Source: a virus
Lineage: Duplodnaviria; Caudoviricetes
IMG/VR virus record: IMGVR_UViG_3300008266_000061
Coordinates: 1-59,880 of that record
Reading direction: 5' to 3' (one strand)
Length of the DNA stretch: 59,880 bases
The position numbers and the translations under genes are program-made. Shown piece by piece: positions 6,171-55,351 of the stretch. The notes under the pieces are model-generated. The model was given only the letters and a program-made list of their open reading frames with translations, ran no database searches and was not told the DNA's origin. Each line of letters begins with the position of its first letter. Position 1 is the stretch's first letter.

Positions 6171-6205
6171 TTGGTTGATATATTGCAAATATAATCACTA
6201 CCCAC

Positions 6206-15642: not shown

Positions 15643-15706
15643 TTGTTTTCAACTATTTAGTAAAAAAATTTACTACATTTGTCGTGGTTAACTAAATTTG
15701 TTTGAT

Positions 15707-32932: not shown

Positions 32933-35900
32933 ATGGAAGAAGAATTTGACGAGTTCGGGGTTCCGATTAAGCCGTTGGCCAATGAGTCAAAACCAGCCAA
33001 GCCAACGACCGCTAAGGTCGAGGTCGATGAGTATGGCGTGCCTATAAAAAAAAAAGAGGGTACTACACCAGGTTCAGAGCAGCCTGTACAGCCTTCTGCG
33101 ACGAGTGGCGGTCCTGATCAGGCCTCTGTAGACAAGCAAAAGACACTTCTTAGCAATGTAAAGAGGCTATATAAAAACTTCTTAAATGATGCAGACCAGG
33201 CGTTGAATGACGGCTGGGATGTGGACTATACCAAGAAGCACTTTAGCGACAGGCGCGGCCAAATCAGCAGCATGCTTGACGAGATGGACAGTCTCGGCGG
33301 AGATGACGTGCGTAAGTGGACGTCTGGCATGCGCTCCGCGATGGAGAACAGTCAAAACAATGTTGTCGCCCAGCGTGATTCTTACCTTAGCTACTTCAGC
33401 GACCCGGAAAACTTGTACGCAGAAGATAAAGGCAACAGGGAGTGGTTTTCCAAGAATGTCAAGGAGGTTGAGGGTATTTTAAGTGGCAGACAGGCGGCCA
33501 ACCCAAAGGAGGGTTTGCCGTCCGTTAAGGTGCCCAAAAAGAAAGAGTTTGGCAAGGGAGAGGTTCCGTCGTTACGTGAAATTGTGCAGAAGCCTCAAGC
33601 CGAAATGTTTAAACCGGAAGAGGATGACTACACGAGCGAAAGGTTAAAAATCGCCGCGTATCAGGAGGCTAACGATAAATACAAGGACCTCGTAGGGCTT
33701 ACAAAGAATGTCACGGTAACCACCAACAAGGCTGGCAACACAGAGATCGGTAACGTTGTCGTGGACTATAATCTACTCATCCAGAACGAGGAGATGTGGA
33801 AGAAGTATGTTGGCGAAGATTTGCCGTGGCCAGGTGGCGTATACGAGCCAAACCCACAGAAAAGGAAAGATATACGGCTAGAGGCTGAAAATCGTATCAA
33901 GCAAAAAATTCAGAATGCCAGCGACAATGTAGGCGAAACCCTTGACACCAAGATTATAGACAAGATAGTTGAGGAAAACTTTAACGAGAAAACATTCGCC
34001 CACTTCTTAAAGGCCCCGGACGAAGACATCACGCAAACAACTGTTGACTCCAGCAAGTTGGATGAACAGGTAAGAAAAATAATCGAGCAGTATGGCCTTG
34101 ACCCAAACGGGTCTGCTGTAAGCATCCTGTATGACAAGGCCAACGCTGCGGTACAGAGCCAGTCCACGCAATATGACACCGACGAATACTTTAAAGAGGA
34201 ACACCCGGAGGCGTATGCGCTCAGAGAGAAGTACAAGAGCGGTAAGTTCCAAGAGGAAATAAACGCAAGGTACATATCCGATATAGAGGCGATGTACAGC
34301 CAGTACGAGTCCCAGGCAAACACCGAGATTGACGCTATTGTTTCTGTCGCTAAAAAGCAGGCCGACCAGCTTGCTATAAAATATAACGAGCAGACTGACG
34401 CAATAAAGCAAGAGGTCAAGAAACTGGGTGAGGACTATCAAAACGGCGTCATTGATGAGCTGACCTATAACGACGCTTTCAACAAGTACAACCAACAGCT
34501 TGCTGAATTAGGCGATGCCTTCCAGGCCTTGTTGCCGGACCAGTCCCAGTTGATGGAAGAAGCCAACAAGATATACTCGAGGTACAACAGCACCTTTGAG
34601 ATGAGAAAGGCTGAGATGGTAAAGAGGGCTGACGAGGAGTTGAAAAAGTATGCCGCTGGCATCCCAGAGGAGGACCTCAAGACTATCAACACGGCTTATC
34701 AGATGTCCTTTGACAAGGCAATGTCTGAAAGGAATAGTGAGCTGTTCAAGCAGATGAAGATGACCCAGCAGGAGTCGGTAATCCCGCTGTATATAGCCCG
34801 CCGTTCGTTCATGAACGGGCTAGGTTCGTTTATAAAAAACATAGGCAACTACACTGACAGTCAGGACCTTAAAGTGATGGGTGAGACCATGCAGAACGAA
34901 TGGAGTTCTGCCGCCCCTAAGGTGAAAGACATTGGCTTTAATGCCGACGACTTGTACTACAACAGCCAAATCGCGTTAGGCAACATGGGTGGCAACATGG
35001 CCCCGGCATTGCTTGGCACGGGGCTGGTTAGCTACTTCTCTGGCGGGGCCGCTACCGGACAGGCCGTAACCCTAATGGCTGGATGGGTAGGGAACTGGGC
35101 AAGTGAGACCATGTCAATAGCGGGCGAGAATGGCGCCGCTGTTTTGGCGAAGACTGGCGACGTTAGGCGCTCTGAGCAGGCCGTGTCGAGAAGCATTGAC
35201 GCCCAAAAGGACCTGTTCTTTACATACGCCATAGACGGCCTTCCATTTACAAAGGGCGCATACAGGCTCGTGTCTGGTTGGGGCAAAGGGCTTGGTGCTG
35301 ACATATCGGGGAGGGCCGCAAGGGCTGTCGTTGGCGGAGCTGTTGAGGTGTTACAGGAGACTTTCCTGCAAGAACTGCCACAGAATATTGCCCAAGAAAA
35401 TATAGTAGAGAAAGAACGCGATCCATGGACAAACTTTGGCGAAATGTATTCCAGGGAGCGTATCAAGGAGACCCTTGTGGGCGTTGCACCGATAGGTATC
35501 CTGGGTTTCATTGGCGGCGCAAGGACTGGCTCTTTGGCCCAGCAGCGAGTAGACGAGGCACAGGCGTTTAACGACAAGGCAACCCTTGCCGGTGGGTTTG
35601 AAGACCAGCGACGTCAGTACTTACAGGGGCTTGTGTTTGAAAAGAACGAGAAGTACGCAAGGGGTGTGGTGTCCTCACTGTATGCGACCGGCAACATAGA
35701 CGTCAACGAGGCGGCCCAGATGCAGGAGCAGATTACGGACGCGAACCGGATAAAACTTGCCGCAGACAACGCCAAGCTCAACACAAGCCAACGCAACGTG
35801 TATGGGTTCTTTAGTGCCCGGGCGGACGAGGCAAGAAGGAACGCGGACAAGAACTCAAACGACCCTATCCTCGAGAAGATGTACCGCCAACAACAGGCTC

Positions 35901-37744
35901 AATACGAGCGTGTTGGTGCGGAATACTTGCAGGGAAAGTCGCCAGACATGCTTACGCTTACTTACGCGGACGGCACGTCCATGATGATGACCCCGGAGGA
36001 CGCCAAGGGGCTTAGCGAGAACAAAGATTTTTTAACCCTGTTGGCCAAGAAGCGTGTTAGCGTTTCGGGATACGGCAACACCCAGCCTATACTGGACCAG
36101 TTGCAGACAAGTGTAAACAACCACGAGACGTCTACCACGTGGAAGCAGAAGGCTGAGAAATTGACCGGCATGGTCAAGTCTATAGTTGAGCCACGCAGGG
36201 TGGATATTGAGGATAAAAAGCCTATGCCTACCGAGGCGGCACAAAAGCAGGTTGATCAGAACTACAACAACACTGCGGACCTCTTGAAGGCAATGAAGGC
36301 CGGGGACCAGTTCCTGACGACGGTAATTGGAAACCCCTTGTGGGGCAAGTTGGCTGATGACAAACGGAATGCGATAACTTCGCTTTCTGGCCAGATGGCC
36401 AAAGACCGTCAGTTGATGGCCGACAACGATTCGGAGTCAAACGAGTACAAGCAAGCAAAGGAGAGGATTGCCGCCAATGAAAAGGCGGTCTATGACATAT
36501 TAAACGGTAAAGTAGATGATACGAAAAACATCACGGGGGTACCAGGTCAAGTCGGAGTCGGGCAAAAACCTGTCGAAACCCAACCTGTCGAAGGCGCAGG
36601 CACAGAAACGACTACAACAGGTGGAGTACTTCAAGAAGAAGAAGTAGCCGACCCGCGCCAGAGGGTCTTAAACTCTATCACGGAGCAGGACTTCATCGAC
36701 AACGCCCCGGCCATAACCACCCCAGACATTGAGCGAATCAAGTCAGACGACGCATCTAAACAACAGGCCGCCGAGAAGGCGCGAAAGGAGGCCGAGTCAG
36801 CATATGCTTACCTGGACGGACAGAAGACAGCTAAGGAGTTCCTTGCAGACAACGGCTACGACGTGGAGGGCATGAGCGATGAGGACGCTAAAAAGTATGC
36901 GGACTCTGACGCTGAGTACTGGAAAAACAAGCTCACAGCTGAAGAGGCTAAGGGCGGCAAGAAGCCGACAAAGGCTAAGAAACCGGGCCGCACTAAGGGG
37001 GCTAAGATTGCCCAGAAGGAGCAAGAGAAGATGGACCTGCTCGAGAGTGGTGTGCAGTCAAGCCAGGAGAGGATTAAGCAGCTTATAGCCGAGGGTGCCA
37101 CGCCAGACCAGGCGTATGCCATCACCGAGGCCGAATGGAAACAGACCGAGGACGGCAAGAAATATGTCGCCCTACAGGAAGAAATAGCCAAGATGTCTCA
37201 AGAGAAGGAGCCCGCGCCGTCTCGTAAAAAGAAGGAGCCAGAGCCCCTCAAGATGCCAGAGATCCCAACAGGCGGGCAGCAAAGGATCGCGACAATCAAC
37301 AGCCTTGAAGAGGCCGTGTTTAAGAGCGCGACGGGGGAAAGCGATATGAGCCTTGAGGAGGTGAACCAGGCCCAGGCGACTGTAGCCGAAATGAAGAAGC
37401 AGAACAAGGAGGGTGGATTAAACGAGGCAGAGCTTGCCATGAAGAAGGCGCTTGGCGAGAAGGTTGTCACAAGGTCTGACGTGGACAAAATGGTCAAGGA
37501 AAAGAAGGTGAAGGAGAAGTGTCCTCCTAAATCTAAAAAGGCTGAACACGGCATGTCGTTCGGCTTCAAGCCCGGCGGCAAGTGGCAAGTCGTTAAGAAC
37601 TTTAAAGGCAAAAGCCACGAGAACGGGGGTATAGACATCGAGGTGATTGGCGGCAAGTTGAAGTACACCGACAAGGATGCCAGCACCAAGGCAAAAAACG
37701 GCATGTATTGGACAATGAAGGGTGTCGATAGTGACAAGAAATGA
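32933..37744 (+). CDS. Large internal virion (cargo) protein, 1603 aa
   Basis: Coiled coils, central Gly/Ala-rich hydrophobic region, C-terminal GKSHENGGIDI motif. Confidence 0.65.
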   Translation: MEEEFDEFGVPIKPLANESKPAKPTTAKVEVDEYGVPIKKKEGTTPGSEQPVQPSATSGGPDQASVDKQKTLLSNVKRLYKNFLNDADQALNDGWDVDYTKKHFSDRRGQISSMLDEMDSLGGDDVRKWTSGMRSAMENSQNNVVAQRDSYLSYFSDPENLYAEDKGNREWFSKNVKEVEGILSGRQAANPKEGLPSVKVPKKKEFGKGEVPSLREIVQKPQAEMFKPEEDDYTSERLKIAAYQEANDKYKDLVGLTKNVTVTTNKAGNTEIGNVVVDYNLLIQNEEMWKKYVGEDLPWPGGVYEPNPQKRKDIRLEAENRIKQKIQNASDNVGETLDTKIIDKIVEENFNEKTFAHFLKAPDEDITQTTVDSSKLDEQVRKIIEQYGLDPNGSAVSILYDKANAAVQSQSTQYDTDEYFKEEHPEAYALREKYKSGKFQEEINARYISDIEAMYSQYESQANTEIDAIVSVAKKQADQLAIKYNEQTDAIKQEVKKLGEDYQNGVIDELTYNDAFNKYNQQLAELGDAFQALLPDQSQLMEEANKIYSRYNSTFEMRKAEMVKRADEELKKYAAGIPEEDLKTINTAYQMSFDKAMSERNSELFKQMKMTQQESVIPLYIARRSFMNGLGSFIKNIGNYTDSQDLKVMGETMQNEWSSAAPKVKDIGFNADDLYYNSQIALGNMGGNMAPALLGTGLVSYFSGGAATGQAVTLMAGWVGNWASETMSIAGENGAAVLAKTGDVRRSEQAVSRSIDAQKDLFFTYAIDGLPFTKGAYRLVSGWGKGLGADISGRAARAVVGGAVEVLQETFLQELPQNIAQENIVEKERDPWTNFGEMYSRERIKETLVGVAPIGILGFIGGARTGSLAQQRVDEAQAFNDKATLAGGFEDQRRQYLQGLVFEKNEKYARGVVSSLYATGNIDVNEAAQMQEQITDANRIKLAADNAKLNTSQRNVYGFFSARADEARRNADKNSNDPILEKMYRQQQAQYERVGAEYLQGKSPDMLTLTYADGTSMMMTPEDAKGLSENKDFLTLLAKKRVSVSGYGNTQPILDQLQTSVNNHETSTTWKQKAEKLTGMVKSIVEPRRVDIEDKKPMPTEAAQKQVDQNYNNTADLLKAMKAGDQFLTTVIGNPLWGKLADDKRNAITSLSGQMAKDRQLMADNDSESNEYKQAKERIAANEKAVYDILNGKVDDTKNITGVPGQVGVGQKPVETQPVEGAGTETTTTGGVLQEEEVADPRQRVLNSITEQDFIDNAPAITTPDIERIKSDDASKQQAAEKARKEAESAYAYLDGQKTAKEFLADNGYDVEGMSDEDAKKYADSDAEYWKNKLTAEEAKGGKKPTKAKKPGRTKGAKIAQKEQEKMDLLESGVQSSQERIKQLIAEGATPDQAYAITEAEWKQTEDGKKYVALQEEIAKMSQEKEPAPSRKKKEPEPLKMPEIPTGGQQRIATINSLEEAVFKSATGESDMSLEEVNQAQATVAEMKKQNKEGGLNEAELAMKKALGEKVVTRSDVDKMVKEKKVKEKCPPKSKKAEHGMSFGFKPGGKWQVVKNFKGKSHENGGIDIEVIGGKLKYTDKDASTKAKNGMYWTMKGVDSDKK

Positions 37745-39319: not shown

Positions 39320-42300
39320 ATGGCAAAAGGCTGCGTTTACATACTACAATCAGGCAAGGATGCGGGGAAAATCTTTGGTTCTAAGGACTCCCTTGCCGCG
39401 CACATGAACTACACCCCGGCCATGGCCGACTTGATGGCCAAGTACGAGAAGACGGGTGGCAAGATGGACGCGGGCAATGTGACCAAGTGGTTGACCGACA
39501 ACGGTTACTTGAAGGCTGAGGCTAAGAAGCCAACTACAACAGGTGAGGATATTAAATCTTTCTTCAGCAATATTGGCAACCAAAGTTTAGCAATCATGGA
39601 AGCCGATATACTTAAAGCTGGTAAGTCTGTTATATCTAATATATCTAAAGCTACTTCTGAGCAAAGAAAAAAAATAGATGCTGATATAGAGCAACTTAAA
39701 AATAAATATCCCGAAAGGAATATTACGAGCAAGGTTGAAAATGGTAATTTAATTGTTGAAAGCGGAGTGGCCGCCCCTAAGACAACCCAAAAGCCAACAA
39801 CTAAGAAAGAGTTCCCAAAGGCCCCGGTCACAGACGCGGTAAAGGCTGCGCTCAAGAGCGTGGACAATACCACGGTGGCCATCATGAACCTGGCAAAGGT
39901 ACTCCCGACGGTATACGAGTCTATCACCAAGCAGGTAAAGACAACCCTTGGCAAGCCTGTCTCACAGCAGGTGGCCGAGGCGTACCACAACGCGGTAGAG
40001 AACGGCGTGGAGCCAGAACTGGTAGCGGCGGTAGAGAATGCTGTAGCATTACAGGAGCAGATGAAGTCCAAGCCAAGCCTGGCCGACGACATCGAGACGG
40101 CAGAGACCTTGGAGATGGACGGCGTGCCTAACGGGGTACGCGTCAGCAACAAGTCGTCTTTGGCCGACCTGGAGCGCAAGCATGCGGGGAACGCCACTAA
40201 AAAGGCGACCATTGCCATGGCCCGTGCGGCAGCCAAGACCCTCAAGTCTGTGTTCCCGATGATGGACATCCACCTGCACGAGAACACCTCCGACTACAAC
40301 AACGCTATGGCTAACCTTGGCGCACAGCAGAACAGCGCGGGTAACTTTACATACAGCACCTCGTCCGATGGAACGGTCGTTGGTCGTATCGACATCAACC
40401 TAAACAGGGCTGTTCCACGCACCGTTGTACACGAGGTGAGCCACGCGATAATGCTCAAAACCTTTGGCGACAGTTCTCCTGCCTTCCTTGAGTTCCGTAA
40501 CAACCTTGAGAAGATAATATCAAAGTCCGGCAACGCGAGACTGTCAGCCTTTGCCGACAAGTACAAAGACATAGCCGACGACATAGGCCAGGCGGAGGAA
40601 TATCTCGCCGAGCTGGCCGGTATACTGTCCGACAAAGAGGCTCCGCTTAGTTATGGCGTGATTCGCCGCATCGCTGAGATGATCAACAAAGCGGTGTCTA
40701 CCATAACCTTTGGCCGTATCAAGCCTTTTGAGGACTTGCAAAACCAGAAGGAGACTCTTGAGTTCTTTAACAGCATTGCACAAAGCATTAAGACCGGTAG
40801 CTCACTTGAAAATCTTATGACGGCCGAGCCGTATAGCACGTCAATAGCTATTGAGGTTGATCCAGATGGAACCTTTACGAAGTCAAGTATCAAGACTAAA
40901 GCGGCAATAGGCGATTACATCATACCCAAGGGTAAGAAGGATTTGGCAATTGCTACCGTGCCTACAAAATCACTTGCGGAAGTTATTAAGGAATACAACG
41001 GTCGTGTGGTAATCATTACTAGCGACGCTACTGGATACGGTGTGGATAGTAAGGGACGTGAGATTTATGGTGGACCTGGGTTTGCAAATAATTTGAAGAA
41101 TGTTCTTGACGAAATTGGTTTTGCAAGTTTGAACATAGGTACGGTTAAGTCAACATATACCGCCGCAGAAAATATTTATGGCCAAGGCAAGACTCTTGTT
41201 TTGATCATGGTTCAACCACCTCATACTACAATAAATAATTCCTATGGTACTCGATACTTCATGGAGTCTCTTGTTAAAATTGCAAAAAACAAAGATTGGC
41301 AAGATGTAAAAAATGATATAAAAACCCGCATTTCAACACTTAATAAAATTACGAATGAGATTGGAGATGAAAATGTTGCAAAAATGATGGCGTTTTTTGA
41401 CAAAATAAATTCAAAGTCAGATCCAGATGCCTTAACTGAGGAGTATCTAAATTTTACAACATTCCCAGCCAGATCTGTAATAGCTAAAACATTGATGTTT
41501 GATCATCCCGGAAAGGGCGTGAGTGTAAATACCGCAAAAAGTAAGTTAGCATTTTTAGATATTGGTGTTACTATTTATGATTTCTTAAAAGAATACGGAG
41601 ATCAAACCATCCTCACAGAGGATATGATGAGGGAGGATATAGGCGGGTTTGTTGTGGCTGGATTTGAAATTGATGTCACGGATAAAGACACTAGAGAAAA
41701 ATTAATAGTTGAGACTCAAGGAAAGGGTATAGCACATCCATTGTTTAATGCCAAATTACCTGGTACTAATCATTTTGTATTAGACGGGCTTTATGGCGTG
41801 AACGAAAACTTTGCCCGCTTTTCAAAAACAAACACTGAAATTGCATTACCAACAAAAGAACGCGACCAAATGGTTCGTGAAATATATACAAAAACAAGCA
41901 ATTATGCTAAACCTATACAAAGTAAAATAAATGCAATAGCTCAAGATCCAGCGTTGTCTGACGAAGAAAAAAATGCTCAAATAGAAAAACTTAAAATTTA
42001 TACGAATCTATCAGTAACTAAAAAAGTTGAGTTTAAGGAAAAGTACTTATCAAAAATAAAAGGTGCTTTAGTTACTGTAATGCCCAATGTAGCAACAAGT
42101 GTTGCACAAGGTATAGGATTTATTCCCGAAAAAGGCGCTGAAAAACGTATAGAAAAAGCAGAATACACAAAATCCAGAGAACTTCCACCGTCAAAGATCG
42201 CAAACAAGGCCCAGATTGCAATCAACGAATACGAAGAGGCGCCAGCCAGCGAGAAGCCGGTACTGAAGAGCAAGGCTCAGCTTGCCGTGTTCGACGAGAC

Positions 42301-45133
42301 AGGCTACGTGTCCACAGAGTTTTGGGTAAACAACTTGAGTGCCAACACCAAGTACCTAGACGGCGTGATCAAGTCCATCCTGGACGCACGCAGTGTACTC
42401 AAGAAGGGGAAGGTAAAGCCGGAACAGGTCGTGAAGGCGTACATGATAACGCTCGGCTCTATGGGCAGCGGCGGCACGTATTATGACAGCTGGAAGGAAA
42501 AGACAGGTCAAACAGTTAGCGACCTATTCTTGGAGAAAGAAAAAGGGCGCGACTGGTTAAGACCGGAAGGTGCAGCCGCCGCATACCTTGTGACAGACGA
42601 AGGTAAAAAGTTAGTGGACGACATGATTGCGGGCACGGCCAGTGCAGTGCAGATTAAAAAACTATTTGACTTTATTGGCGTGGGCCGCGAAACACAAAAG
42701 GCTGGATACGCAATCAAGTCAATGCAAAACGGTGGCATAAAGGCCATGACCGACACGTTCAACGAGAACAAGGGTAAGGACTTCGCTCAGCTGTACCAGG
42801 CCGCTATGGACAACCTGGAGGGTATAGGCGAGGGCAAGACCGGGTTCTTCAACCAGTACTTTGGAGTGTCTGGACGTGCTGTGATTGACGCCCGCGAACT
42901 GAATGCATGGATCGCAGGCAGCATGAAGCTCACCCCGGAGCAGACCAGGGCAAAGGAAAAGGCAGCGTCCAGCAAGGCTATCGGAGACATGCTGTTGAAG
43001 CGTATCGAGGAGGTCGGACTGAAGCTGGGTTACTCTGCGGACATGGCTGGGTACATCGCACACCACGCGATTTGGGACGCTGTAAAAGGATCCGTAACTA
43101 CCCACGAGGGTGAATACGCCGTGGTGTCTGGAAAGGCGCCCATCAAGTCAAAGGTGTCCATCAAGTCGAAGGCACAAATCTTCGGCGAGACAGGAGCCAC
43201 GAGGATGGAAAACGCTGAAAAGGTACTCGATAACCTACAGGTGGCAAGGGACATGGAGGCCAAGTTTGAAAAGGAGGAGCGCACAATGAGGTTTGTTGGC
43301 CCGTCAAAGTCGGCTGAAAACGCTCAGAAGATTAGGCTGGCTACTGGATGGGAGAAGGGTGCAGACGGTATGTGGAGATTGGAGATCCCAGACGGTCAGC
43401 TCAAGCCGATTGACCTTGATAACATGTACAAGGACGGCGGGGTTCCAAAGGCATATCTTGACGAGATATACGACTCCAAAGAACTGTACGAGGCTTATCC
43501 AACCGCAAGGGACCTACGGGTGTCTTTTATTGAGGCCGATGATTATAAGGGATCCTACAATCAAAAGGAAGGTCAAATAGAATTGGCTATCAACAATTTT
43601 GATGAGCCGATGGATATGTTGTCTACTCTACTGCACGAGGTTCAGCACCACATACAGTACGTGGAGGGATTTGCAACAGGTTCAAATACTTCCACTGTCG
43701 TTAATAAGATCATGTCTGAGATTCAACAAATAAACAGACAGATAGATACGGTCAAAAAGGAAAAGAAGGAGCCGGGTGCAGATGTTGGTAAGTTGCAAGA
43801 AAAACAAGCTGTCCTTGAGAACAAAAGCAAAAGACTCAACGAAAAGGTGTCAGAAAGCATCATGGGCGCAATGGCCAGGATGAACGTCGAACTCAAGGGA
43901 CCAGAAGAACAAAGGGCCTTTGTGAACCTGGCACTAAAGGATAGAGACGTACAGAGGGAGTTATATATAAAGGTGGCTGGAGAGGTAGAGGCTAGGAACG
44001 TACAAAAGCGTATGGGCCTTAGCGAAGAGGAGCGCATGAATAAACTCCTATCTTCAACAGAGGACGTCCACAGAAGTGACCAATTGGCTTTGGGAGCCGC
44101 ATTGAAAGGGGAGACGCCAACTCTCAAGTCAAAGGCCCAGATGGCACCCGTAGAGGAGACGGCTAAGGCGTTGGATGAGGTAGGAGAGGCGACTGTTAAG
44201 GCTAAAATAGATAGTTTATCGGAGTCTTTAAAAAAGTCTTTTGATCAACAAAAAGCCAAAATAGAGGCATTAGGAAACGCCTCCACAGATAAGGATTTAG
44301 AATCGTATACTAACTTAAAGTCTGCAAGCAGACAAATTGATCGTGTTGCTAAATACGGATCTTTCCCAATAGGCTACGATACAATAAGAGACGAGTTTTC
44401 AGACGTAGACAAACAAATTGAAAAACCAGAGGCCAAGTATAAAAACGGGAAGCAAATTGGCAAGGAGGATTTTGGTAAAACATATGAGGTTGAAGGCAGT
44501 GGTCTTTTATATAGAGGTGTATCAAAAGCCGATTATGAGAGAATAAATAAACAAGGGTTTATTGATACTGATATGAGGGGTGCAATTAGTCGTAGAGAGG
44601 GTATGAACTTGGCTAAGGATCCTGCAACATCTGCTAGTTACCTCCCTAATAATGCTGGCGGATACGTCATAGCTATAAACCCAAAGGGATTGAATCTTTT
44701 TGGTACAGATGCTGACAATTATATAAGAACACGTGATGTTGTACCTATTGAAAACATTGTAAAGGTTTCTGAGTATATCGCCAAAGATGATATGGGCTCG
44801 TTTTTTATGGATTCAAAACTTAATGAATCTATATCTAACGCCTACTACAAGGCTAAAGAAGACGGCTCCAACCCCGAACTTGTAAAAGCTGTTGAAGACC
44901 TAATCGGTAAGCCAGGACTCAAGACCAAGGCCCAGATGGTGGACAACAACGCCAAGGAGGTAGCCGACCTTTATGCCGAGATGCGTGAGGGTGGTGGATG
45001 GGCTGAGCGCCAAAAAATAAACGCTATTTTGGACCAAGACCCCAAACTATCGTACATTTACAACAACTTTAAGGCCATCACTCAGATGCTCGAGGATGCC
45101 AAACTTTTAACGAAATCCGGTAACTGTCCATGA
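39320..45133 (+). CDS. Large polyvalent cargo protein (two HExxH peptidase domains, HhH glycosylase-like, LPD23-like and ART-like modules)
   Basis: HEVSH..EEYLAE; GIGEGKTGFF..AVIDAR..HHAIWD; RLATGWEKGADGMWRLEI; LLHEVQH.IQ..EGF..GEVEAR; LYRG. Confidence 0.75.
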   Translation: MAKGCVYILQSGKDAGKIFGSKDSLAAHMNYTPAMADLMAKYEKTGGKMDAGNVTKWLTDNGYLKAEAKKPTTTGEDIKSFFSNIGNQSLAIMEADILKAGKSVISNISKATSEQRKKIDADIEQLKNKYPERNITSKVENGNLIVESGVAAPKTTQKPTTKKEFPKAPVTDAVKAALKSVDNTTVAIMNLAKVLPTVYESITKQVKTTLGKPVSQQVAEAYHNAVENGVEPELVAAVENAVALQEQMKSKPSLADDIETAETLEMDGVPNGVRVSNKSSLADLERKHAGNATKKATIAMARAAAKTLKSVFPMMDIHLHENTSDYNNAMANLGAQQNSAGNFTYSTSSDGTVVGRIDINLNRAVPRTVVHEVSHAIMLKTFGDSSPAFLEFRNNLEKIISKSGNARLSAFADKYKDIADDIGQAEEYLAELAGILSDKEAPLSYGVIRRIAEMINKAVSTITFGRIKPFEDLQNQKETLEFFNSIAQSIKTGSSLENLMTAEPYSTSIAIEVDPDGTFTKSSIKTKAAIGDYIIPKGKKDLAIATVPTKSLAEVIKEYNGRVVIITSDATGYGVDSKGREIYGGPGFANNLKNVLDEIGFASLNIGTVKSTYTAAENIYGQGKTLVLIMVQPPHTTINNSYGTRYFMESLVKIAKNKDWQDVKNDIKTRISTLNKITNEIGDENVAKMMAFFDKINSKSDPDALTEEYLNFTTFPARSVIAKTLMFDHPGKGVSVNTAKSKLAFLDIGVTIYDFLKEYGDQTILTEDMMREDIGGFVVAGFEIDVTDKDTREKLIVETQGKGIAHPLFNAKLPGTNHFVLDGLYGVNENFARFSKTNTEIALPTKERDQMVREIYTKTSNYAKPIQSKINAIAQDPALSDEEKNAQIEKLKIYTNLSVTKKVEFKEKYLSKIKGALVTVMPNVATSVAQGIGFIPEKGAEKRIEKAEYTKSRELPPSKIANKAQIAINEYEEAPASEKPVLKSKAQLAVFDETGYVSTEFWVNNLSANTKYLDGVIKSILDARSVLKKGKVKPEQVVKAYMITLGSMGSGGTYYDSWKEKTGQTVSDLFLEKEKGRDWLRPEGAAAAYLVTDEGKKLVDDMIAGTASAVQIKKLFDFIGVGRETQKAGYAIKSMQNGGIKAMTDTFNENKGKDFAQLYQAAMDNLEGIGEGKTGFFNQYFGVSGRAVIDARELNAWIAGSMKLTPEQTRAKEKAASSKAIGDMLLKRIEEVGLKLGYSADMAGYIAHHAIWDAVKGSVTTHEGEYAVVSGKAPIKSKVSIKSKAQIFGETGATRMENAEKVLDNLQVARDMEAKFEKEERTMRFVGPSKSAENAQKIRLATGWEKGADGMWRLEIPDGQLKPIDLDNMYKDGGVPKAYLDEIYDSKELYEAYPTARDLRVSFIEADDYKGSYNQKEGQIELAINNFDEPMDMLSTLLHEVQHHIQYVEGFATGSNTSTVVNKIMSEIQQINRQIDTVKKEKKEPGADVGKLQEKQAVLENKSKRLNEKVSESIMGAMARMNVELKGPEEQRAFVNLALKDRDVQRELYIKVAGEVEARNVQKRMGLSEEERMNKLLSSTEDVHRSDQLALGAALKGETPTLKSKAQMAPVEETAKALDEVGEATVKAKIDSLSESLKKSFDQQKAKIEALGNASTDKDLESYTNLKSASRQIDRVAKYGSFPIGYDTIRDEFSDVDKQIEKPEAKYKNGKQIGKEDFGKTYEVEGSGLLYRGVSKADYERINKQGFIDTDMRGAISRREGMNLAKDPATSASYLPNNAGGYVIAINPKGLNLFGTDADNYIRTRDVVPIENIVKVSEYIAKDDMGSFFMDSKLNESISNAYYKAKEDGSNPELVKAVEDLIGKPGLKTKAQMVDNNAKEVADLYAEMREGGGWAERQKINAILDQDPKLSYIYNNFKAITQMLEDAKLLTKSGNCP

Positions 45134-45625: not shown

Positions 45626-48600
45626 ATGGCAAAGAATCCCTGTAAGATATTCTTTAAGGACAAGCCTGGCGGCACCGCCACTGAGTACACTTATGATGAG
45701 TTCATGAGTATGCTCAAGGATGGGAGGTTGATAGACTTTATAAACCAGGGCCTGCTTGACGAGGGGCGCATGCGCGGGGAGAACCCGTTCATCGCGGCTG
45801 AGCCACAGCCGGTGAAGCGAGTCGATTTAAAGTCTATGGTAGGGAAGGGCAAGGCCCTCAAGACCCTGTTGACCAGGGCTGTACTAGGTGACAACGACAA
45901 GCGTATCGTTGATGCCTTACGTAAGACCGGTCTTGACCGGGACATTTTGAAGCTTACCGATGCAAGGGCTCGTGCTGAACAGTTTGTGGAAAAGGTTGGC
46001 TTTGACGCGGCCTACCAGGCGGTGTCTGACCACGCCATGAACCCCGGGGTGGCCTCGTACGTCTATGCAAACCTTATCGACAGGCTAGAAAAGGCAAAGC
46101 TTATTTCGCAGGAAGACAGCGGCATGGACCCACAAGAATATGTGGAGGCTCTAAACGACCTGTACGACATGCAGGCCAAGATGATTGGAGAGTTTTCGGC
46201 CATATCCACCGGGTACGGTCAGTTCATAAACTCACTCAAGGACATCTACCGCAACTCGCTGTTTAACTACAGCCTGGACAACCAGATCAACGAATACAAG
46301 AAGGCTAACTTCAACTACATCCCCTCAGAGGTGGAGGAGAAGTACCGCAAGCTTGACGCGCAGATAAAGGAACTGAACCAGCGCATTTCCGACATGGAGA
46401 AGAGGGCGCAGGACGCGGAAGATGCCAGGAACATGGCCGAGGTACAGGCAGCGGTTGAGGGGGACAAGATTGCCAACATCGACATCAAGGACAGCACAAA
46501 CGACGCTGCCGCTGAGGTGATGAAGTTTAAGGCCAAGTCCGTTTCGTTCAAGGACGCCAACGGGAAGCCTATCAACGTGCCCAAGTCCTCGTGGGACAAG
46601 ATAGTAGAGGCCGCAGCAAACGCGGTAAAGAACCTGACCAACAAGCCGTCGCTTGTGTCAAAGGCAAGCCTTTCCGGTTCCGCATCTAACGCCGCCATGA
46701 ACGCGGCCATTGCTGCGGTACAGGCAGAGCCTTGGTATCAGGCACTCAGCGCGGCCGACAAGAAGGCTGTGGAGGACCAGATAAAGGCGCAGTTTCAAAG
46801 CACAACGCCGGGCAAGATATCGATACCATCCAGCGTAATAAGCAAGGCTATCGAAGACGGCGCTGCCACCATGGACGAACTTGTCCAGGCGGTAAAGGCC
46901 GAGATGTCAAAGAAGTACCCCAACGCCACTGATCGCCAGATCCGTGACGCAATAAGCGGATACGGACGTGAGCGGACCAAGACCAAAACCGACTTGCAGG
47001 TGGAGCTTGCAAGGTTGAGGAACATTGGACGCATGGTGTCAAGGCTTGAGGACATCCAGGCAGGCATCATCAAGGCCAAGACTCCCCAAGAAAAGGCCAA
47101 GCTGACCGATCAAGAAAGTCAGTTGAGGTTGGATATACAGGACGCCTACGAGCGTGAAGGTATTGCCGGCGCACAGCGACTCATAAACGCCAAGGAGAAC
47201 GCCAAGAAGCGAATAGCTGAACTGGAGCGCAGACTTAGCGAGGGGGACTTTAGCAAGAAGGAACGCAAGGAGGCGGTAGAAGACGACGAGCTTCGTCAAC
47301 TCCGGGCAGAGCGCCAGACGTTACAGAACCAGTTCGACAAGGAGCTTGACAGGATCAAGAAACAGAACAGTCCAACCAAGTTTTGGGACGGATTAGGAGC
47401 GTTTTGGGAGATTGCTCGTCTGTTGCAGGCAACCTTTGACTTGTCGATGGTGCTTGTGCAGGGTTTGAAGCTGACCGTGTCTCACCCACTTTATGCCGTC
47501 AGGGGATTCAAAAAGGCGTTTGAACACTTGGCGAGTGAAAGCCGGGCACGTAAATGGGGGGAGTTCATCAAGTCTCAGGAACACTACGAGGAGATGATGA
47601 AGGCCGGACTTTCGTTGTCTGAATACGACGCGTCGTTGTCTGAAAAAGAAGAAGGCTTCTTGGGCGGCGTAGGTAACACGATGTGGGACTATTTGGTCCT
47701 CCCGTTCAAGATGTTTGGTCAGGGCGCATACACCCGGGCGGCGTTAGTAAACCCGTTCAAGGCGTTTGAACGTGCTGGTATCGGATACCTAAACACTATG
47801 CGTGTCCTTAGGTACGAGGATGGTCGCAACATGCTTATGAACGCTAAAAAAGGCAAGACGTTTGAGACCGACCCGGAATCGTTTAAGGCTGTGGCAAACA
47901 TGGTCAACACGTTTACCGGAAGGGCGTCCTTGGGGCCACTAGAAAAGAATGCCGGACTCTTGTCAAAGATATTCTACTCGCCAAAGAACTGGGCCTCTCA
48001 GCTCAAGACGTCTACCATAGGGTTTCCTATATACCTGCTCACCTTAAAAGACAAGGGTACGTTTAAGCCGTCGGTAGCCCAGAAGATGGCTGCCAGGGAC
48101 TTTATATCTTGGTTTATCACAACAACTGGTATAGTGTCTATGATTGCGTTCAAGGCAAACGAGGACGACGAGGATGAGGTTGAGGTAGACCTAAACCCGC
48201 TAAGTTCAAGGTTTGGCAAGATCCGTATAGGCAACATTTACGTGGACCCATGGGGTGGATTTATCCAGCACATCGTTTTACAGGCCCGTTTATACAACGA
48301 GGCAATGGTTCGTGGCGGGGAAGAAAAAAAGCTAGGGGACTACAACACCCCCACAAGGGGCGGGCTGATTGCGGAGTTTGCTAAGAACAAGCTACACCCG
48401 ACCGCTAGTCTTTTGGTTGGATATCTTACCACACACGACGAGGACGGCAAGCGCGTAGACGCATACGGCAACGACTTTATATGGAAGGACGAGATACAGG
48501 AGCGTGTATTGCCCATGATTGGAAGCACGCTTGCTGAGATATTTAAGGAGGAGCCCAACCTCAAGGGGGCATTCCTTGGCGCGTATGCATTCCTTGGCGC

Positions 48601-49132
48601 CGGTGTAAACGTGTACAAGAACGAGAATGTTGCCCCTAAGTACGACAGCCCAGAGACGGCCGGAGTTATGAAGGAGTTCAAGCCTAAGGGTATTCCGGAC
48701 ATCAAGAAGGACACGTTTGCTGTAGAGATGACCCCAGAGGAACTTGTGCAGATCAACGTAAACTATCGCAAGAAGGCGACGGCTCTTATCGACCTATATT
48801 CGGCATCCAAGCCTTCACTCGACGACAAGAAGATGTTCCCGGAGAAGTTCAACAAGGTCACGGAAAACCAACTGGAAGAGGCTCGACTAGAGGCCGTAAA
48901 GAAGGGGACGCCGGAGGCGCAGCTCGACGAGGAGTCTAAGCGCATTGCTATCGAGAAGAAGAAGCGTGAAAAGATATCCGACGACATATCAGAACTGGCC
49001 ACGCTTGGTAAAAACGCGGCAGCATACGAATACTTCAAGTCTCTTGGTAAGCGCATCCCGCCCACGATAGAGGACGCTGTAAAGGAATACGAAAAAAAGT
49101 TGAGTAGTTTACAGAAACAACTGGACCGATAG
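45626..49132 (+). CDS. Large internal virion (cargo) protein, 1168 aa
   Basis: Coiled coil, then ERA..GYLN.MR...N.FTGR..LG...P.SS.FGKIRIGN..VDPWGG domain typical of phage ejection proteins. Confidence 0.65.
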   Translation: MAKNPCKIFFKDKPGGTATEYTYDEFMSMLKDGRLIDFINQGLLDEGRMRGENPFIAAEPQPVKRVDLKSMVGKGKALKTLLTRAVLGDNDKRIVDALRKTGLDRDILKLTDARARAEQFVEKVGFDAAYQAVSDHAMNPGVASYVYANLIDRLEKAKLISQEDSGMDPQEYVEALNDLYDMQAKMIGEFSAISTGYGQFINSLKDIYRNSLFNYSLDNQINEYKKANFNYIPSEVEEKYRKLDAQIKELNQRISDMEKRAQDAEDARNMAEVQAAVEGDKIANIDIKDSTNDAAAEVMKFKAKSVSFKDANGKPINVPKSSWDKIVEAAANAVKNLTNKPSLVSKASLSGSASNAAMNAAIAAVQAEPWYQALSAADKKAVEDQIKAQFQSTTPGKISIPSSVISKAIEDGAATMDELVQAVKAEMSKKYPNATDRQIRDAISGYGRERTKTKTDLQVELARLRNIGRMVSRLEDIQAGIIKAKTPQEKAKLTDQESQLRLDIQDAYEREGIAGAQRLINAKENAKKRIAELERRLSEGDFSKKERKEAVEDDELRQLRAERQTLQNQFDKELDRIKKQNSPTKFWDGLGAFWEIARLLQATFDLSMVLVQGLKLTVSHPLYAVRGFKKAFEHLASESRARKWGEFIKSQEHYEEMMKAGLSLSEYDASLSEKEEGFLGGVGNTMWDYLVLPFKMFGQGAYTRAALVNPFKAFERAGIGYLNTMRVLRYEDGRNMLMNAKKGKTFETDPESFKAVANMVNTFTGRASLGPLEKNAGLLSKIFYSPKNWASQLKTSTIGFPIYLLTLKDKGTFKPSVAQKMAARDFISWFITTTGIVSMIAFKANEDDEDEVEVDLNPLSSRFGKIRIGNIYVDPWGGFIQHIVLQARLYNEAMVRGGEEKKLGDYNTPTRGGLIAEFAKNKLHPTASLLVGYLTTHDEDGKRVDAYGNDFIWKDEIQERVLPMIGSTLAEIFKEEPNLKGAFLGAYAFLGAGVNVYKNENVAPKYDSPETAGVMKEFKPKGIPDIKKDTFAVEMTPEELVQINVNYRKKATALIDLYSASKPSLDDKKMFPEKFNKVTENQLEEARLEAVKKGTPEAQLDEESKRIAIEKKKREKISDDISELATLGKNAAAYEYFKSLGKRIPPTIEDAVKEYEKKLSSLQKQLDR

Positions 49133-49619: not shown

Positions 49620-50267
49620 ATGATAGAGCTGATGATCGCGGACCCCACCCCGCACGAATTAGGTGAATATAGAGAACTAATTAAGGAGCTAAAGGACAAG
49701 TTCCCAACCGCAATTGTCATGGTGACAAGGGGCGATGGGGACTACGCTATAAGTACTACAATAATCTACATAGACAGTGAGAAGCGCACAGACACCCATT
49801 CCGCAATTTACCCCTCGGTTCCCAACCGTGGAACCGCGCAAATCAAGGCGGACATTCTCTCCCTTACCTTCGCTATGCGTGAACTTGGGTTTGATATCAA
49901 ATTCCTTGACGAGGATCGGCCAGTTCGTGAGAAGGTTGTCATAACCCGTGGGCGTTTGGACTCGTGTGTTTCCCTTCGCCAACTGGTTGAACTGCTCGAA
50001 GAAGCCAACCACGAGAAGGTTACGGAGGTAAAGGTGATGATAGAGAACAAGCGCAAGAACGGCGGTCGTCCAAGCAAGAAGTCTGTGATTGACTTTATCT
50101 TTTCCGGGCCTAAGGAGGAGCGCAAGCAGCAGCCTGTTCGCACCGGGGCAGAGTGGGCGCGTGTCAAGATGGAATGGCGCGATAAATTTGCCACTTCTAA
50201 GTACGCGAAAATGTACAAAAGTCTCGACGAATTTTGTACCTTCGCGACTGAAGAAGAATGTAAATAA
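49620..50267 (+). CDS. Hypothetical protein
   Basis: ORF track; promoter element and AAAACGATATG start context. Confidence 0.7.
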   Translation: MIELMIADPTPHELGEYRELIKELKDKFPTAIVMVTRGDGDYAISTTIIYIDSEKRTDTHSAIYPSVPNRGTAQIKADILSLTFAMRELGFDIKFLDEDRPVREKVVITRGRLDSCVSLRQLVELLEEANHEKVTEVKVMIENKRKNGGRPSKKSVIDFIFSGPKEERKQQPVRTGAEWARVKMEWRDKFATSKYAKMYKSLDEFCTFATEEECK

Positions 50268-53200
50268 TGGCAAACCCGATAATCACTAGAATACAGGTAG
50301 AAGGCAACGACGTTGTGTCGTTTTTAAACGGCACTACACCTCCGTATACCTACGTCCGTTCCATGAGTCAGATTCTCCCGCAGAGTCCGACGTACATCTC
50401 CTACCGATATGACTCTATAACCATCTCACAGGTGGGCGGAGAGGCGTTTACATTCACGGTTTATACGATTACACAGGTTGGCGGCAACGCGTTTACGGCC
50501 CTTAACTTCCAAGACCCCGCTAACGTAGTACAGGCCAAGACTGTTGAGATATACAGGCTTCTTGTAACATCCATCTTCAAGGGATGCTGCGAGTGTGGTA
50601 ACACAGAACCGGAGTGTTCTATTCAGTACACCTATGGAAATTCGGGACTTACTGGCGAGTTTGATTATACTTATGGAACCCCTGGTTTAATCAGGTTTAA
50701 CGATATAACAGGGAACAATCAGGACTTTTCCGGCTTCTTCCCGCTTATACCAGATGGGTCGTGGGTTTTTCTGTTTAGCAAGACGGACCCGACCGTGTAT
50801 GCGGTGCTTCAGTTGTCCAACTACATCAACGCAGGTGGAGCGGCGGCATTCGATGCTATTGAGTTGAATGCCAACGGAACTCCATTTGTGGAAGGCACTC
50901 AGTTCTGCGTGGACTTCACAAGCGTGGGTGGCTCACTCGTACAAGGGTGGCAGGACACGTTGAATATAAATCCCAACCTCAACCAAGACAACACGATTGA
51001 TGGGGGCGGATTTGACTTTGTCTTTGACAACAACAACTCGTTTACCATCAACGGCCCCGGCGGATCTTTTGAGGTAGACGCGTTCGGCCCCGCTATGAAC
51101 GCAGGGACTCAGCAGATACTTGTAACTGCGGGGTACATTGATATAAATACTCCTCTGATAGGTTCGGCGTCTCCGGGGGACGTTCTTACGCTTACCGCGT
51201 CGGGCCATATTGAATATGCTCCGCCTCCCGTGAGTAATGTGTACACCGTTGCAAACGGTCTTCATTATCAAGAAAGTCCTGTGGATCCTAATGTGTTTCA
51301 TTTGGGCGGTAATCTTATTGAAGACACAACCATATACAATCAAGGGTTTGACCTTACCGTAGAAAGGGCAGTTAGCGGTTATGCATTAAAGGTGGAGAAT
51401 ACAGGCACAAGCATCGGGCCTTTTAATCACGCTATTAGGGCTGTTACTACGGATGGATTGGCCGGGGATTTTTATGCTGGTGCAGATTTTTATGCGATAG
51501 ATGAGATAGAGCCTGTGGTGAAGATAACCAGAACAACTATTTTATCACCTGATCCAGAGTTTAATTATGATAACATAGGTTCATCTATAGACATGATGAA
51601 TCCTATGGTTGTTGGGTCTTTTGCTACAGTCGTTCCATACACTAGTAGAATAGCATCAAGGTGGACAAACTCATTAAACCAAGGGGGGTTTGCTGTTAAT
51701 CGCCCAATAGGAAGAACTGAATTTTGGCATTACGATGGAGTTGCAGCTGAATCCTTGACTGCCACATTTAATGCTGACAATCCGTATAGTGGTGGTAATC
51801 GAGGAATGGTTCAGTTCAATCAGTATGGACAGGGAACATTTTATGGTTTGCTTACCCCTGTTTATGGGTTAGCTGTTGATGATCAAGGTAACATATTGGA
51901 AGTTGATTTAGGTGGAGGTGGAACCTACGATGGCGACCAAGGCGTCTACAAAGACACCACGCTAACGAACGACACTTTCATGTTAGGGGCGCCTTACGTT
52001 TTTGGTTCTCCTAACCCAGTTCCGTTTCAAACCTCAAGAGAGGTGGATGTTGCGGGAAATGTTATGATTTTTACCGGAAGCCCTTTTACTGGCTATACTC
52101 TTAATGCGTACAATTCATCTGCCACCTCAAGAGCTGGAGGAGCTATATACGCTGAAGTTGTAAATGGATTTCAAAAAGGCGTGTATTCTAATGCTCCTGC
52201 GGGGATAGGTTTTTATACTACGTCCGGCACTTATGGGCTTATGTCGTATACAACAGGTAGTGATTTTAATACAGTACTTGATGTTACTCCGGCTAATACA
52301 TCTAATGTATCTGAGATGTTAGAGCTTAATAGAAATAATGCTAGTGGAGTAGGAGCGGGTATACGCATAATAAACAGAATAAATTCAACTGGATCTTCCG
52401 CCCTTGTAACAACCGCTCAAGGTTATTCTTCAGGCTCTCCGACTAGTACTAACTTTGAAATACAAACGAAAGGAATTGCCGTAACATTAACATCCAATCT
52501 GACTGTAAAAGGTGTTGATGGTCAACTTCAATTTAATCAATACGGAACCCCTGGGACATTCTACGACGCATCTCCTGTATGGGCGCTTGGAGTAGATGCA
52601 AGTGGTAATGTGGTAGAGTTTACTCCCGGCGGAGGCGGAGGCGGAACTTACGACAGCAACCAGGGTGTTTACAAAGATACCACGCTAACGAACGACACGT
52701 TCATGCTTGGGGCGCCGTCAGGGAGTGGCGGAACAATTCCTTTTTTACAAGATAGAGAAATTTTTACAGGTGAATTTAATTTATCTATAATAGGAAGACC
52801 TCCGTTTTTTGGTAAAAATGTTTTGTATGTTCAGGCTGATGGATTTTCTGGAAGCAATGTTAGTTCTATATTTTCAGATACAAGTTTAACCTTAGGCAAG
52901 ACATACGCTTACAACACTAGCGGAGGTTTGACGAGTGTTGGTTATGGTGGATATACGGGCAAGGGGATTGAGTTAGCTCAAGAGTTTTATTCTGAAATAA
53001 TTACTGGCGAAACTGGTGGACCTTCTGGAATAAACGAATCTCTTAGGTTTGTTAGAGCTTTTGGTGGATCCATTGGGGATGGAACAAGCATAACATTTCA
53101 AGCATCAAGTTCTGTCGATGCCTCTATCGAAAGTTATCTTACTAACGCATCAAATGGTGCTAGTCTTGCTTTTAGAACCAAGGATAATTTGGGTTCTTTA

Positions 53201-54952: not shown

Positions 54953-55351
54953 ATGAAAAGAATAATACGCAAACTTCAACTCTTCGATGGCGTGTGGTCT
55001 ATCCCTGTCGTCTTCTTCCTATTCCTTCTCGCCGGGTCTTACAGCTCGGAGTACTTCGGTGACGGACTCATCTCCATCGAGTACATTCAGCAAGTAATTC
55101 TCGCCGCACTTATACTAATTTTTGGTAACTTTGTGGTGTTCCTTGGCGGGTACTTTAACTTCAGAGGCTTGCAGAGTTACTTCTACTCAAGCCAAGCCAA
55201 GAATGAATTAGATTATACATCAACAGCATGGCAAAAAATCGTATTGTATGTCTGTGTCTACTTTGGACTCTTCTTGTGTTTCCTGTTTATCCTATGGCTT
55301 ATAATGACGGCTACTGTGTCCGTGTCAATGCCTCCTCTTACGTTGGAGTAA
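54953..55351 (+). CDS. Holin-like three-TM protein
   Basis: Three hydrophobic helices; overlaps endolysin. Confidence 0.65.
   Translation: MKRIIRKLQLFDGVWSIPVVFFLFLLAGSYSSEYFGDGLISIEYIQQVILAALILIFGNFVVFLGGYFNFRGLQSYFYSSQAKNELDYTSTAWQKIVLYVCVYFGLFLCFLFILWLIMTATVSVSMPPLTLE

Follow-up and report, generated by a model that had tools for sequence, protein, structure and literature searches.

A conserved seven-residue delimiter marks the cassette borders of a zincin-containing polyvalent protein in an uncultivated phage

Polyvalent proteins probably provide one of the main routes by which phages and plasmids deliver many anti-host activities together. Short peptides that mark the borders of modular proteins are known from several other systems, including VENN in CdiA and PxxxxDPxGL in Rhs, which mark the junction between the variable toxin and the conserved carrier of polymorphic toxins, and the picornavirus 3C sites, where protease-site motifs are placed at the domain borders of a polyprotein. 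MARTX toxins are described as having conserved N- and C-terminal regions that frame strain-variable effector domains, which are released by a built-in processing protease (PMC5218395, PMC6315884, PMC6731672). For polyvalent proteins, Iyer, Burroughs, Anand, de Souza and Aravind (2017) proposed that zincin metallopeptidase (MPTase) domains process them into individual functional units, and the same article used HHpred to unite this MPTase with the endopeptidase of lethal factor (PMC5512222). Such processing has so far been a prediction. This paper describes a protein of this kind, P0001, encoded by a complete IMG/VR virus record of the Caudoviricetes (IMGVR_UViG_3300008266_000061; 59,880 bases, completeness estimate 91%), the whole of which constitutes the window analysed here. 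A zincin, an HhH-GPD fold, and LPD23 (PF18838) plus a second HExxH are combined in this one phage polypeptide, and its modules (M0 to M6; Table 1) are separated by a recurrent short peptide, hereafter the delimiter, whose relation to cassette exchange and to the zincin is the subject of this work.

An earlier note on this DNA had listed eight motifs of the K-[ST]-K-A-Q type along the reading frame, and all eight are present in frame at the positions given. The strict form K[ST]KAQ occurs four times, always in P0001 and nowhere else in the six translated frames of the window. The extended motif is the 7-mer Φ-K-[ST]-K-[APSV]-[QSA]-Φ (Φ, hydrophobic residue), commonly preceded by K-P-x; P0001 contains seven copies as well as an eighth, degenerate one, IANKAQI (aa 960-966; aa, amino acids); relatives have IKSKAQI or IKSKPQL at the aligned position. 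The core [ST]K[APS]Q[LIVMF] was found four times in P0001 against a mean of 0.04 after residue shuffling, and the 7-mer six times without overlap against a mean of 0.016, none of 5000 shuffles yielding as many copies in either case. The bare K[ST]K is far weaker (9 copies against 2.6 expected; 6/5000 shuffles as many), and 2/9 of its copies, at aa 740 and aa 1502, lie within modules and are not delimiters. Moreover, the 22-nucleotide (nt) repeat that had been noticed to bracket the last cassette (44123-44144 and 44918-44939) is indeed identical at 20/22 positions. Literature searches retrieved nothing relevant on 'KSKAQ', and on cleavage motifs of phage ejection-protein polyproteins nothing that covers the P0001 family.

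The role of the delimiter in cassette exchange was apparent from the homologues of P0001. A word-seeded search of 5.8 billion proteins yielded 47 relatives of 1232-3364 aa, and a set of 22 proteins (P0001 and P0003-P0023) was cut at the 7-mer, after which the pieces were clustered into families. The order in these 22 homologues is an N-terminal part (F02), the zincin (F01), one large module, a series of variable cassettes and F00, with near-constant family lengths (F00, 71-71 aa; F01, 264-276; F07, 338-341; F04, 301-361; F03, 287-347), and the large-module slot after the zincin is occupied by one of five families (F05, F06, F07, F11 or F27). The 98 junctions represent 52 distinct neighbour pairs; 10 different families occur directly before F00, F04 has 9 different families before it and 7 after it, and the order of F03 and F04 goes both ways (P0001 and P0019 versus P0003, P0007, P0010 and P0016). 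The 10 residues before a junction track the upstream family, as exemplified by GAALKGETPT, which closes F04 before F03, F09 or F12, and the 10 residues after it track the downstream family, as exemplified by [VA]DNNAKEVAD, which opens F00 behind ten different predecessors. The only sequence common to the junctions is the 7-mer, which places the points of exchange at the delimiter itself. In agreement with this placement, BLAST blocks of P0001 against its relatives repeatedly begin or end at aa 966, 978-988, 1281-1287, 1600-1612 and 1856-1868, and in an all-against-all comparison of the 23 strict-motif proteins 341 of 1776 internal alignment ends fell within 5 aa of the motif, as compared to 26.5 expected under uniform placement; the protein pairs compared are not independent. 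The Pfam matches in P0001 and its homologues are all located within cassettes and none crosses a delimiter. Tandem copies (IKSKVS-IKSKAQI in P0001 and IKAKPE-IKSKAQL, which ends a 319-aa F03 subtype) and a 22-aa mini-unit, AINEYEEAPASEKPx, between two delimiters look like duplication or recombination scars. Taken together, these alignments place the exchange, reordering, gain and loss of cassettes among related phages exactly at the delimiter, and the proposal in the earlier note that the linkers are recombination points for effector swapping was borne out, orthologues turning over exactly there.

The composition shift that had been seen near the linkers was recovered by sliding-window GC analysis and in the GC content at third codon positions (GC3) of the seven segments, which is 0.555, 0.663, 0.293, 0.669, 0.539, 0.340 and 0.620. 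In related loci the backbone has a GC3 of 0.54-0.73 and single cassettes of 0.30-0.43, and this cassette-wise mosaic fits the import of single cassettes from lower-GC genomes. Delimiter 6 and M6 together form a piece that was found in 18/22 homologues with a length of invariably 71 aa. A 71-aa gene call on a contig of 2715 bases (P0054) opens at the delimiter (MKSKAQL...) and equals this C-terminal piece.

AlphaFold2 models were obtained for aa 240-540 (30-row alignment, mean predicted local distance difference test score (pLDDT) 74) and for aa 960-1300 (17 rows, mean pLDDT 79). The former has a confident core at approximately aa 269-494, flanked at aa 240-261 and 500-540 by segments with a pLDDT below 50 and hardly any secondary structure that contain delimiters 1 and 2, and the latter has a confident core at aa 989-1275 and a pLDDT below 50 at aa 960-987 and 1276-1300, where delimiters 3 and 4 are located. 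Values in the cores between delimiters are mainly in the 80s and 90s. Linkers lying inside folded domains had been named beforehand as an outcome that would speak against the cassette proposal, and the four modelled linker regions lie outside the folded cores. The possibility that the delimiter forms part of a folded domain was consequently ruled out for these four delimiters by their pLDDT below 50 and lack of secondary structure.

Codon usage was compared among 29 delimiter copies from 6 DNA loci (the window, L002, L003, L006, L007 and L008). The Ser/Thr position is encoded by TCC, TCA, TCG, TCT, AGC, ACT and ACC, Ala by all four GCN codons, Gln by CAG and CAA, and Lys by AAG and AAA; the 9 KSKAQ copies comprise 7 nucleotide versions, and pairs of 15-nt cores agree at 9.7 positions on average. 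This synonymous codon variation implies that the constraint on the delimiter acts on the peptide, and the codon comparison shows conservation of the delimiter at the level of protein rather than of DNA. Two candidate functions at the nucleic acid level were rejected. A DNA site for a site-specific recombinase was ruled out by the 7 DNA versions among 9 KSKAQ copies, and internal translation starts at the delimiter were ruled out by the flanking hydrophobic codons, which are mainly ATC, CTC, ATA and CTT rather than start codons.

The first module downstream of a delimiter, M1, contains an HExxH motif at aa 371 and a downstream Glu, E427, as third zinc ligand, which is the arrangement of gluzincins. 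The domain looks catalytically competent from its alignment, because H371, E372, H375, Y415 and E427, i.e., the HExxH motif, the downstream Glu and the Tyr, are invariant in 30/30 aligned sequences. VIA-align matched M1 to the anthrax lethal factor catalytic domain (Z 8.3; 170 residues aligned, root-mean-square deviation (rmsd) 4.8), PPEP-3 (Z 8.0) and PPEP-2 (Z 7.6), and its nearest solved folds are sequence-specific endopeptidases. The lethal factor match, borderline by its Z value, agrees with the HHpred link of the polyvalent-protein MPTase to that toxin (PMC5512222). No Pfam peptidase model matched M1, and Foldseek gave no match at E <=0.001. A complex prediction for the M1 core with zinc and a 35-aa peptide containing delimiter 5 scored 0.10 (mark 0.32), which weighs neither way.

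The distribution of the delimiter relative to M1 was determined from an exhaustive phmmer search with M1, which yielded 452 cluster representatives at E <=0.001 (84 at <=1e-30), nearly all of 2000-4900 aa, and motifs were counted in the 150 best of these 452 (26-84% identity). The core [ST]K[AS]Q[LIVMF] was present in 135 copies as compared to 8.1 expected from composition, an approximately 17-fold excess, and occurred in 65/150 representatives, 44 of which have at least 2 copies. Downstream of M1 131 copies were found (0.568 per 1000 aa), upstream 4 (0.028 per 1000 aa) and inside it 0. The first downstream copy is located either 14-52 aa past M1 (15 proteins) or about 285-480 aa past M1, i.e., beyond M2, and in relatives with approximately 41% M1 identity the M1/M2 junction reads ...SKSQ-IGDY or RSQL-IGDY, preceded by a linker that otherwise varies in length and sequence. 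The proteins that share the N-terminal anchor of P0001 and have M1 contain at least 3 delimiters in 18/18 cases, and 4 complete M1-less sisters with the same anchor (P0042, P0201 and P0202, 74-84% identical over the first ~70 aa, and the L010 ORF (open reading frame), 50% identical over ~150 aa) contain 0. A single delimiter was found in P0045, which has the same anchor and is M1-less, and a single core copy in P0044, which has a different N-terminus. These distributions show, at the level of sequence comparison, that both where the delimiter lies and whether it occurs go with the zincin.

The sister polyproteins themselves (L010:10001-13549, P0042, P0201, P0202 and P0045) have unrelated interiors with other HExxH sites, and all except P0201 have a related C-terminal anchor (...ITDKTDGCP). 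An alternative repeated delimiter was searched for in the M1-less sisters, and none was found, bar RRAARR, which occurs twice.

P0001 can be described as a polyvalent effector rack, whose exchangeable cassettes are framed by an N-terminal part that is conserved and a 71-aa C-terminal part that does not vary. These ends probably serve to load P0001 into the capsid and to eject it along with the DNA. In the mechanism proposed here, M1 would recognise the delimiter and cut it, probably before the hydrophobic residue, so that the enzymes would come apart either inside the capsid or once injected; cleavage would let each enzyme reach its own target, as Iyer et al. argued in general terms for polyvalent proteins (PMC5512222). 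As a by-product, the short shared coding sequence would ease in-frame cassette exchange. The S1' pocket that is typical of zincins would suit a hydrophobic residue after Gln. That M1 recognises and cuts the delimiter, and that the delimiter is retained for this reason, appears on the comparative evidence slightly more probable than its denial. The earlier note had likewise suggested cleavage by the protein's own peptidases after ejection; indirect support for such cleavage comes from the conservation of the motif as peptide, its near-confinement to the part downstream of the zincin, and its absence from the four complete M1-less sisters. The more encompassing proposal, of an aquatic podophage-like family in which delimiter-flanked cassettes are loaded via shared anchors, injected, and freed by a lethal-factor-like zincin, is put forward tentatively, its probability falling a little below even.

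Several observations weigh against cleavage by M1. The support for it is all comparative. The core motif is missing from 85/150 of the M1-bearing representatives, which implies that M1 does not require the motif, and setting M1-less against M1-bearing proteins amounts in effect to one comparison between clades. Ahead of M1 the delimiter is invariably KSKPS and behind M1 it frequently has the form K[ST]K[AS][AS], and these variants imply that the delimiters need not all be equivalent sites. The fold alignments of M1 span 144-170 residues at an rmsd of 4.0-4.8, with Z values of about 8 that lie in the borderline or common range of the tool, and the Foldseek matches, all of them zincins, are weak, the best being a Bacteroides putative zinc peptidase (E 0.013), followed by lethal factor and collagenases, with N4 virion RNA polymerase (vRNAP) gp50 at rank 25. 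The putative virion location of P0001 rests on synteny and on the 'structural protein' annotation of a 26%-identical Elemovirus match. Another repeated linker, KKPT[T], flanks another variable slot, which shows that such linkers can mark exchange points with no apparent protease logic. Finally, N4 vRNAP, ArdC and TraC1 are described as carrying the MPTase and as being packaged or transferred unprocessed (PMC5512222).

The last two of these observations, together with the motif-free majority of M1-bearing proteins, also support the most serious alternative, in which the delimiter is a mere linker or exchange joint, the polypeptide works intact, and M1 and the second zincin are effectors against host proteins. 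The 7-mer would then persist as a tolerated flexible joint, of which incoming cassettes bring their own copy. Exchange at the delimiter is directly seen, and the tandem scars IKSKVS-IKSKAQ and IKAKPE-IKSKAQ resemble recombination products. However, a flexible joint would not preserve K-S-K-A-Q-Φ through synonymous codon turnover, and 15 nt with a mean of 9.7 identical positions would be a poor substrate for homologous recombination; persistence of the motif where M1 identity falls to 30-45% and its confinement downstream of M1 (131 versus 4) likewise argue for a function beyond that of a joint, and we regard the intact-polypeptide explanation as rather unlikely.

Cleavage of the delimiter by a protease other than M1, either a head-maturation protease of the phage or a protease of the host after injection, is considered improbable. 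Two points favour it: in T4 and phiKZ-like phages, head proteases trim internal or ejected proteins at short motifs, and several ORFs adjoining the portal and capsid genes of the window have no family assignment. A maturation protease usually cuts capsid or scaffold proteins too, but neither the core nor the 7-mer occurs in any other plus-strand frame of at least 100 aa in the window, candidate head proteins included; moreover, a Pfam scan of 30 other window ORFs found no protease family, and the motif tracks M1. The least probable explanation is that the delimiter is an uncut docking peptide, for example for packaged DNA, for the capsid interior or for a chaperone, and spaces the cassettes during packaging, which would suit a basic motif (two Lys) that is surface-exposed and disordered and the packaging role suggested by the conserved termini, but has no partner candidate, does not need the invariant Gln and flanking hydrophobic residues if it is a simple DNA-binding patch, and leaves the polarity relative to M1 unexplained.

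The earlier note had named five modules, and four of the names stood, the exception being ART-like for aa 1609-1866 (M5). M3 has the two-lobed helical fold of HhH-GPD proteins, its best match being Thermotoga maritima Ogg (Tm1821; Z 13.6, 203/209 residues aligned, rmsd 3.6), and the next 25 rows are all HhH-GPD superfamily members or offshoots, after which Z drops below 4; Foldseek gave probabilities of 0.98-1.00 and a target-normalised TM-score (TMt) of 0.52-0.64 to MjOgg, TmOgg and SsOgg. The M3 segment GIGEGKTG...VIDAR has the Gly-rich loop of a helix-hairpin-helix with an Asp behind it, as in this superfamily; within it G1168, I1169, K1173 and D1190 are invariant in 17/17 aligned sequences, and by analogy with endonuclease III we take K1173 and D1190 to be the catalytic Lys/Asp pair of a bifunctional glycosylase. 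M3 matched neither Pfam nor PDB sequences (best profile E 0.32, chance level), and on its model it is filed as HhH-GPD kin at the level of fold only. M4 contains LPD23, one of the LPD domains specific to polyvalent proteins, at 31.9 bits, above the cut-off of 27, and its second HExxH is HEVQH at aa 1439, where the SprT-like and DUF6782 matches are sub-threshold; this unit of LPD23 plus zincin recurs in other phages. A Pfam scan per module gave nothing above the cut-off for M0, M2, M3, M5 and M6. M2, which accompanies M1 across the wider family, had a best ESM Atlas score of 0.84 (aa 530-960) to an entry without a family. M5 may be ART-like to judge from its ESM Atlas leads (0.82-0.85), which are the PARP, Tox-ART-HYD1, Exotoxin A, Arr and ART-PolyVal clusters; Pfam gives no ART match for it. 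Kinship between F09, the family of M5, and the ART-PolyVal cassette F08 was tried and rejected (hhalign probability 0.3). The F09 and F10 families have a common C-terminal tail that includes the last ~60 aa of M5 (hhalign probability 98).

The first ~68 aa of M0 are conserved and may be the packaging anchor, and M0 ends in a conserved segment with the element AYxxAVENGVEPELVAAVE. A helical repeat of the form AYxxAxExGxxPELVxAVE is found at the ends of both M0 and M5, ahead of delimiters. The second repeated linker, KKPT[TSA], flanks the N-terminal variable slot, which holds an insert of ~102-365 aa in 15/17 homologues; in the remaining two, P0012 and P0023, the search did not recover both of the flanking marker strings.

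The gene for P0001 is located among late genes on the same strand (Table 1). Four more ORFs of 1168-1603 aa belong to this late-gene run and have no Pfam or PHROG family, with the exception of a marginal match for the 1168-aa ORF, which is syntenic in L002, L003, L006, L007 and L008. The large terminase (TerL) and portal match PHROG families, and in tblastn their nearest relatives are Flavobacterium, Cellulophaga, Maribacter and Tenacibaculum podophages, at just ~24-26% identity. Among cultured phages the P0001 gene had no megablast match and no close DNA relative, a prophage search covering one genome per prokaryote species gave 104 pattern matches of which 0 were confirmed, and PHROGs gave just three sub-threshold matches to P0001, all of them families of unknown function. 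The type of primase hints at a Bacteroidota host. Directly downstream, a ferritin-like ORF starts 4 nt ahead of the end of the polyprotein ORF, so that translational coupling of the two is possible. It would be unusual for a protein of the iron-storage type to adjoin an injected effector protein; a gap of matching size is present at the equivalent place in related loci. The window has a single tRNA-Glu, which at 90 bases exceeds the usual length of this tRNA.

Table 1. Features of the P0001 gene and its product, cassette families of the homologues, and other genes of the window.
Feature	Position in window	Strand	Remarks
Whole ORF, P0001	39320..45133	+	1937 aa plus stop; polyvalent effector polyprotein; full-length homologues found
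M0, N-terminal region (aa 1-247)	39320..40060	+	first ~68 aa conserved
M0 variable slot (~aa 70-162)			flanked by KKPTT-type repeats
KKPT[TSA] linkers (aa 68-72, 157-163)	39521-39535, 39788-39808
Helical repeat (aa 221-241, 1841-1860)	39980-40042, 44840-44899
Delimiter 1, MKSKPSL (aa 248-254)	40061..40081	+	KSKPS at 40064 (aa 249); identical variant in all close homologues
M1, zincin metallopeptidase (aa 255-523)	40082..40888	+	folded core ~aa 269-494; candidate processing protease
Delimiter 2, IKTKAAI (aa 524-530)	40889..40909	+	KTKAA at 40892 (aa 525); corresponds to ...SKSQ-IGDY in distant relatives
M2, module of unknown function (aa 531-959)	40910..42196	+	GC 0.37, GC3 0.29
Double delimiter 3	42197..42283	+	IANKAQI (aa 960-966), 15-aa spacer AINEYEEAPASEKPV, LKSKAQL (aa 982-988); ANKAQ at 42200 (aa 961), KSKAQ at 42266 (aa 983)
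M3, HhH-GPD fold, Ogg-like DNA glycosylase cassette (aa 989-1274)	42284..43141	+
Tandem delimiter 4, IKSKVS-IKSKAQI (aa 1275-1287)	43142..43180	+	KSKVS at 43145 (aa 1276), KSKAQ at 43163 (aa 1282)
M4, LPD23 (aa 1330-1361) plus second zincin (aa 1288-1601)	43181..44122	+
Delimiter 5, LKSKAQM (aa 1602-1608)	44123..44143	+	KSKAQM at 44126 (aa 1603)
M5, low-GC cassette (aa 1609-1866)	44144..44917	+	GC3 0.34
Delimiter 6, LKTKAQM (aa 1867-1873)	44918..44938	+	KTKAQM at 44921 (aa 1868)
M6, C-terminal domain (aa 1874-1937)	44939..45130	+
F03			glycosylase-like cassette family, 287-347 aa
F04			LPD23 plus zincin, 301-361 aa
F08			ART-PolyVal cassette
F09 (M5) and F10			cassette families of the variable series
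F12			GNAT cassette
F13, F15, F24			weak phosphoribosyltransferase-like matches, below Pfam cut-off
F17 and F23			further families of the variable series
tRNA-Glu (anticodon TTC)	3365-3454	-
Calcineurin-like phosphoesterase	5151-6188	-
DnaA C-terminal helix-turn-helix	6728-7213	-
BT4734-like primase N-terminal domain plus PriCT-1	7991-9931	-
TerL	13180-15642
Portal	15698-18103
SU10-adaptor-like and tail-protein match	25618-26349	+	weak
Four ORFs of 1168-1603 aa	26349-30680, 32933-37744, 45626-49132, 50267-54730	+	same late-gene run
Ferritin-like/Dps-like ORF, 163 aa	45130-45621	+	PF00210 E 1.4e-19; phrog_16594
CHAP-domain protein	55228-55803	+	probably lysin (below cut-off)
NinG	57820-58359	-

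For the processing predicted for polyvalent proteins, this locus offers a candidate site that consists of [ST]-K-[AS]-Q and a hydrophobic residue after it, and together with its relatives it also provides a candidate enzyme with intact catalytic residues and dozens of natural substrate variants, by which the prediction becomes directly testable. If cleavage by M1 holds true, the delimiter would be both a universal cleavage site and a splice point for the in-frame trading of anti-host enzymes. Cleavage aside, an effector repertoire is reshuffled here by whole cassettes, some of foreign composition, at a 7-residue joint, between protein ends that remain fixed. Moreover, the delimiter provides an annotation handle by which giant unannotated phage ORFs can be split into units for structure prediction.

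Among cultured phages, the nearest match to P0001 is gp18 of Elemovirus (Flavobacterium phage vB_FspP_elemo; L011:7633-18717, NC_055854.1), a 3694-aa 'structural protein' of the late module with an M1-like region (26% over aa 272-496), which differs in having no delimiter 7-mer and no repeated 5-mer. The viral polyproteins resemble P0001 in that one ORF encodes several units with a short motif between them and a protease in the same polypeptide; however, their units are fixed replication or structural ones, whereas those of P0001 are exchangeable effectors for which proteolysis is only inferred. In polymorphic toxins, as in P0001, a short conserved peptide coincides with the exchange point, but these have one junction, one C-terminal toxin and an immunity gene, whereas the P0001 family has up to seven junctions and internal, reorderable cassettes, and no immunity gene.

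Polyvalent proteins, as described in the main text of Iyer et al. (PMC5512222), are, like P0001, giant multidomain phage proteins that combine unrelated enzymatic domains, and they have in common with it LPD23 (PF18838) and zincins, and with its relatives ART-PolyVal and GNAT; their MPTase has been linked to lethal factor, the solved fold that M1 also hits, at a borderline score. That main text, its supplements aside, mentions no linker, shuffling, low-complexity or glycosylase (PMC5512222), and relative to it the delimiter at every border, the mapping of exchange to it, its polarity downstream of the zincin, and the HhH-GPD cassette are new. MARTX toxins are closest in logic, with their conserved ends, central exchangeable effectors and built-in protease, and differ in being secreted bacterial toxins of eukaryotic cells, whereas P0001 is phage-borne, with a zincin as candidate protease before its cassettes. 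The MARTX protease is a cysteine protease that is activated by a host factor and located after the effectors. If M1 does cut at the delimiter, P0001 and its relatives would be a phage counterpart of the MARTX toxins, and polyvalent proteins would have in the delimiter their first defined site of processing.

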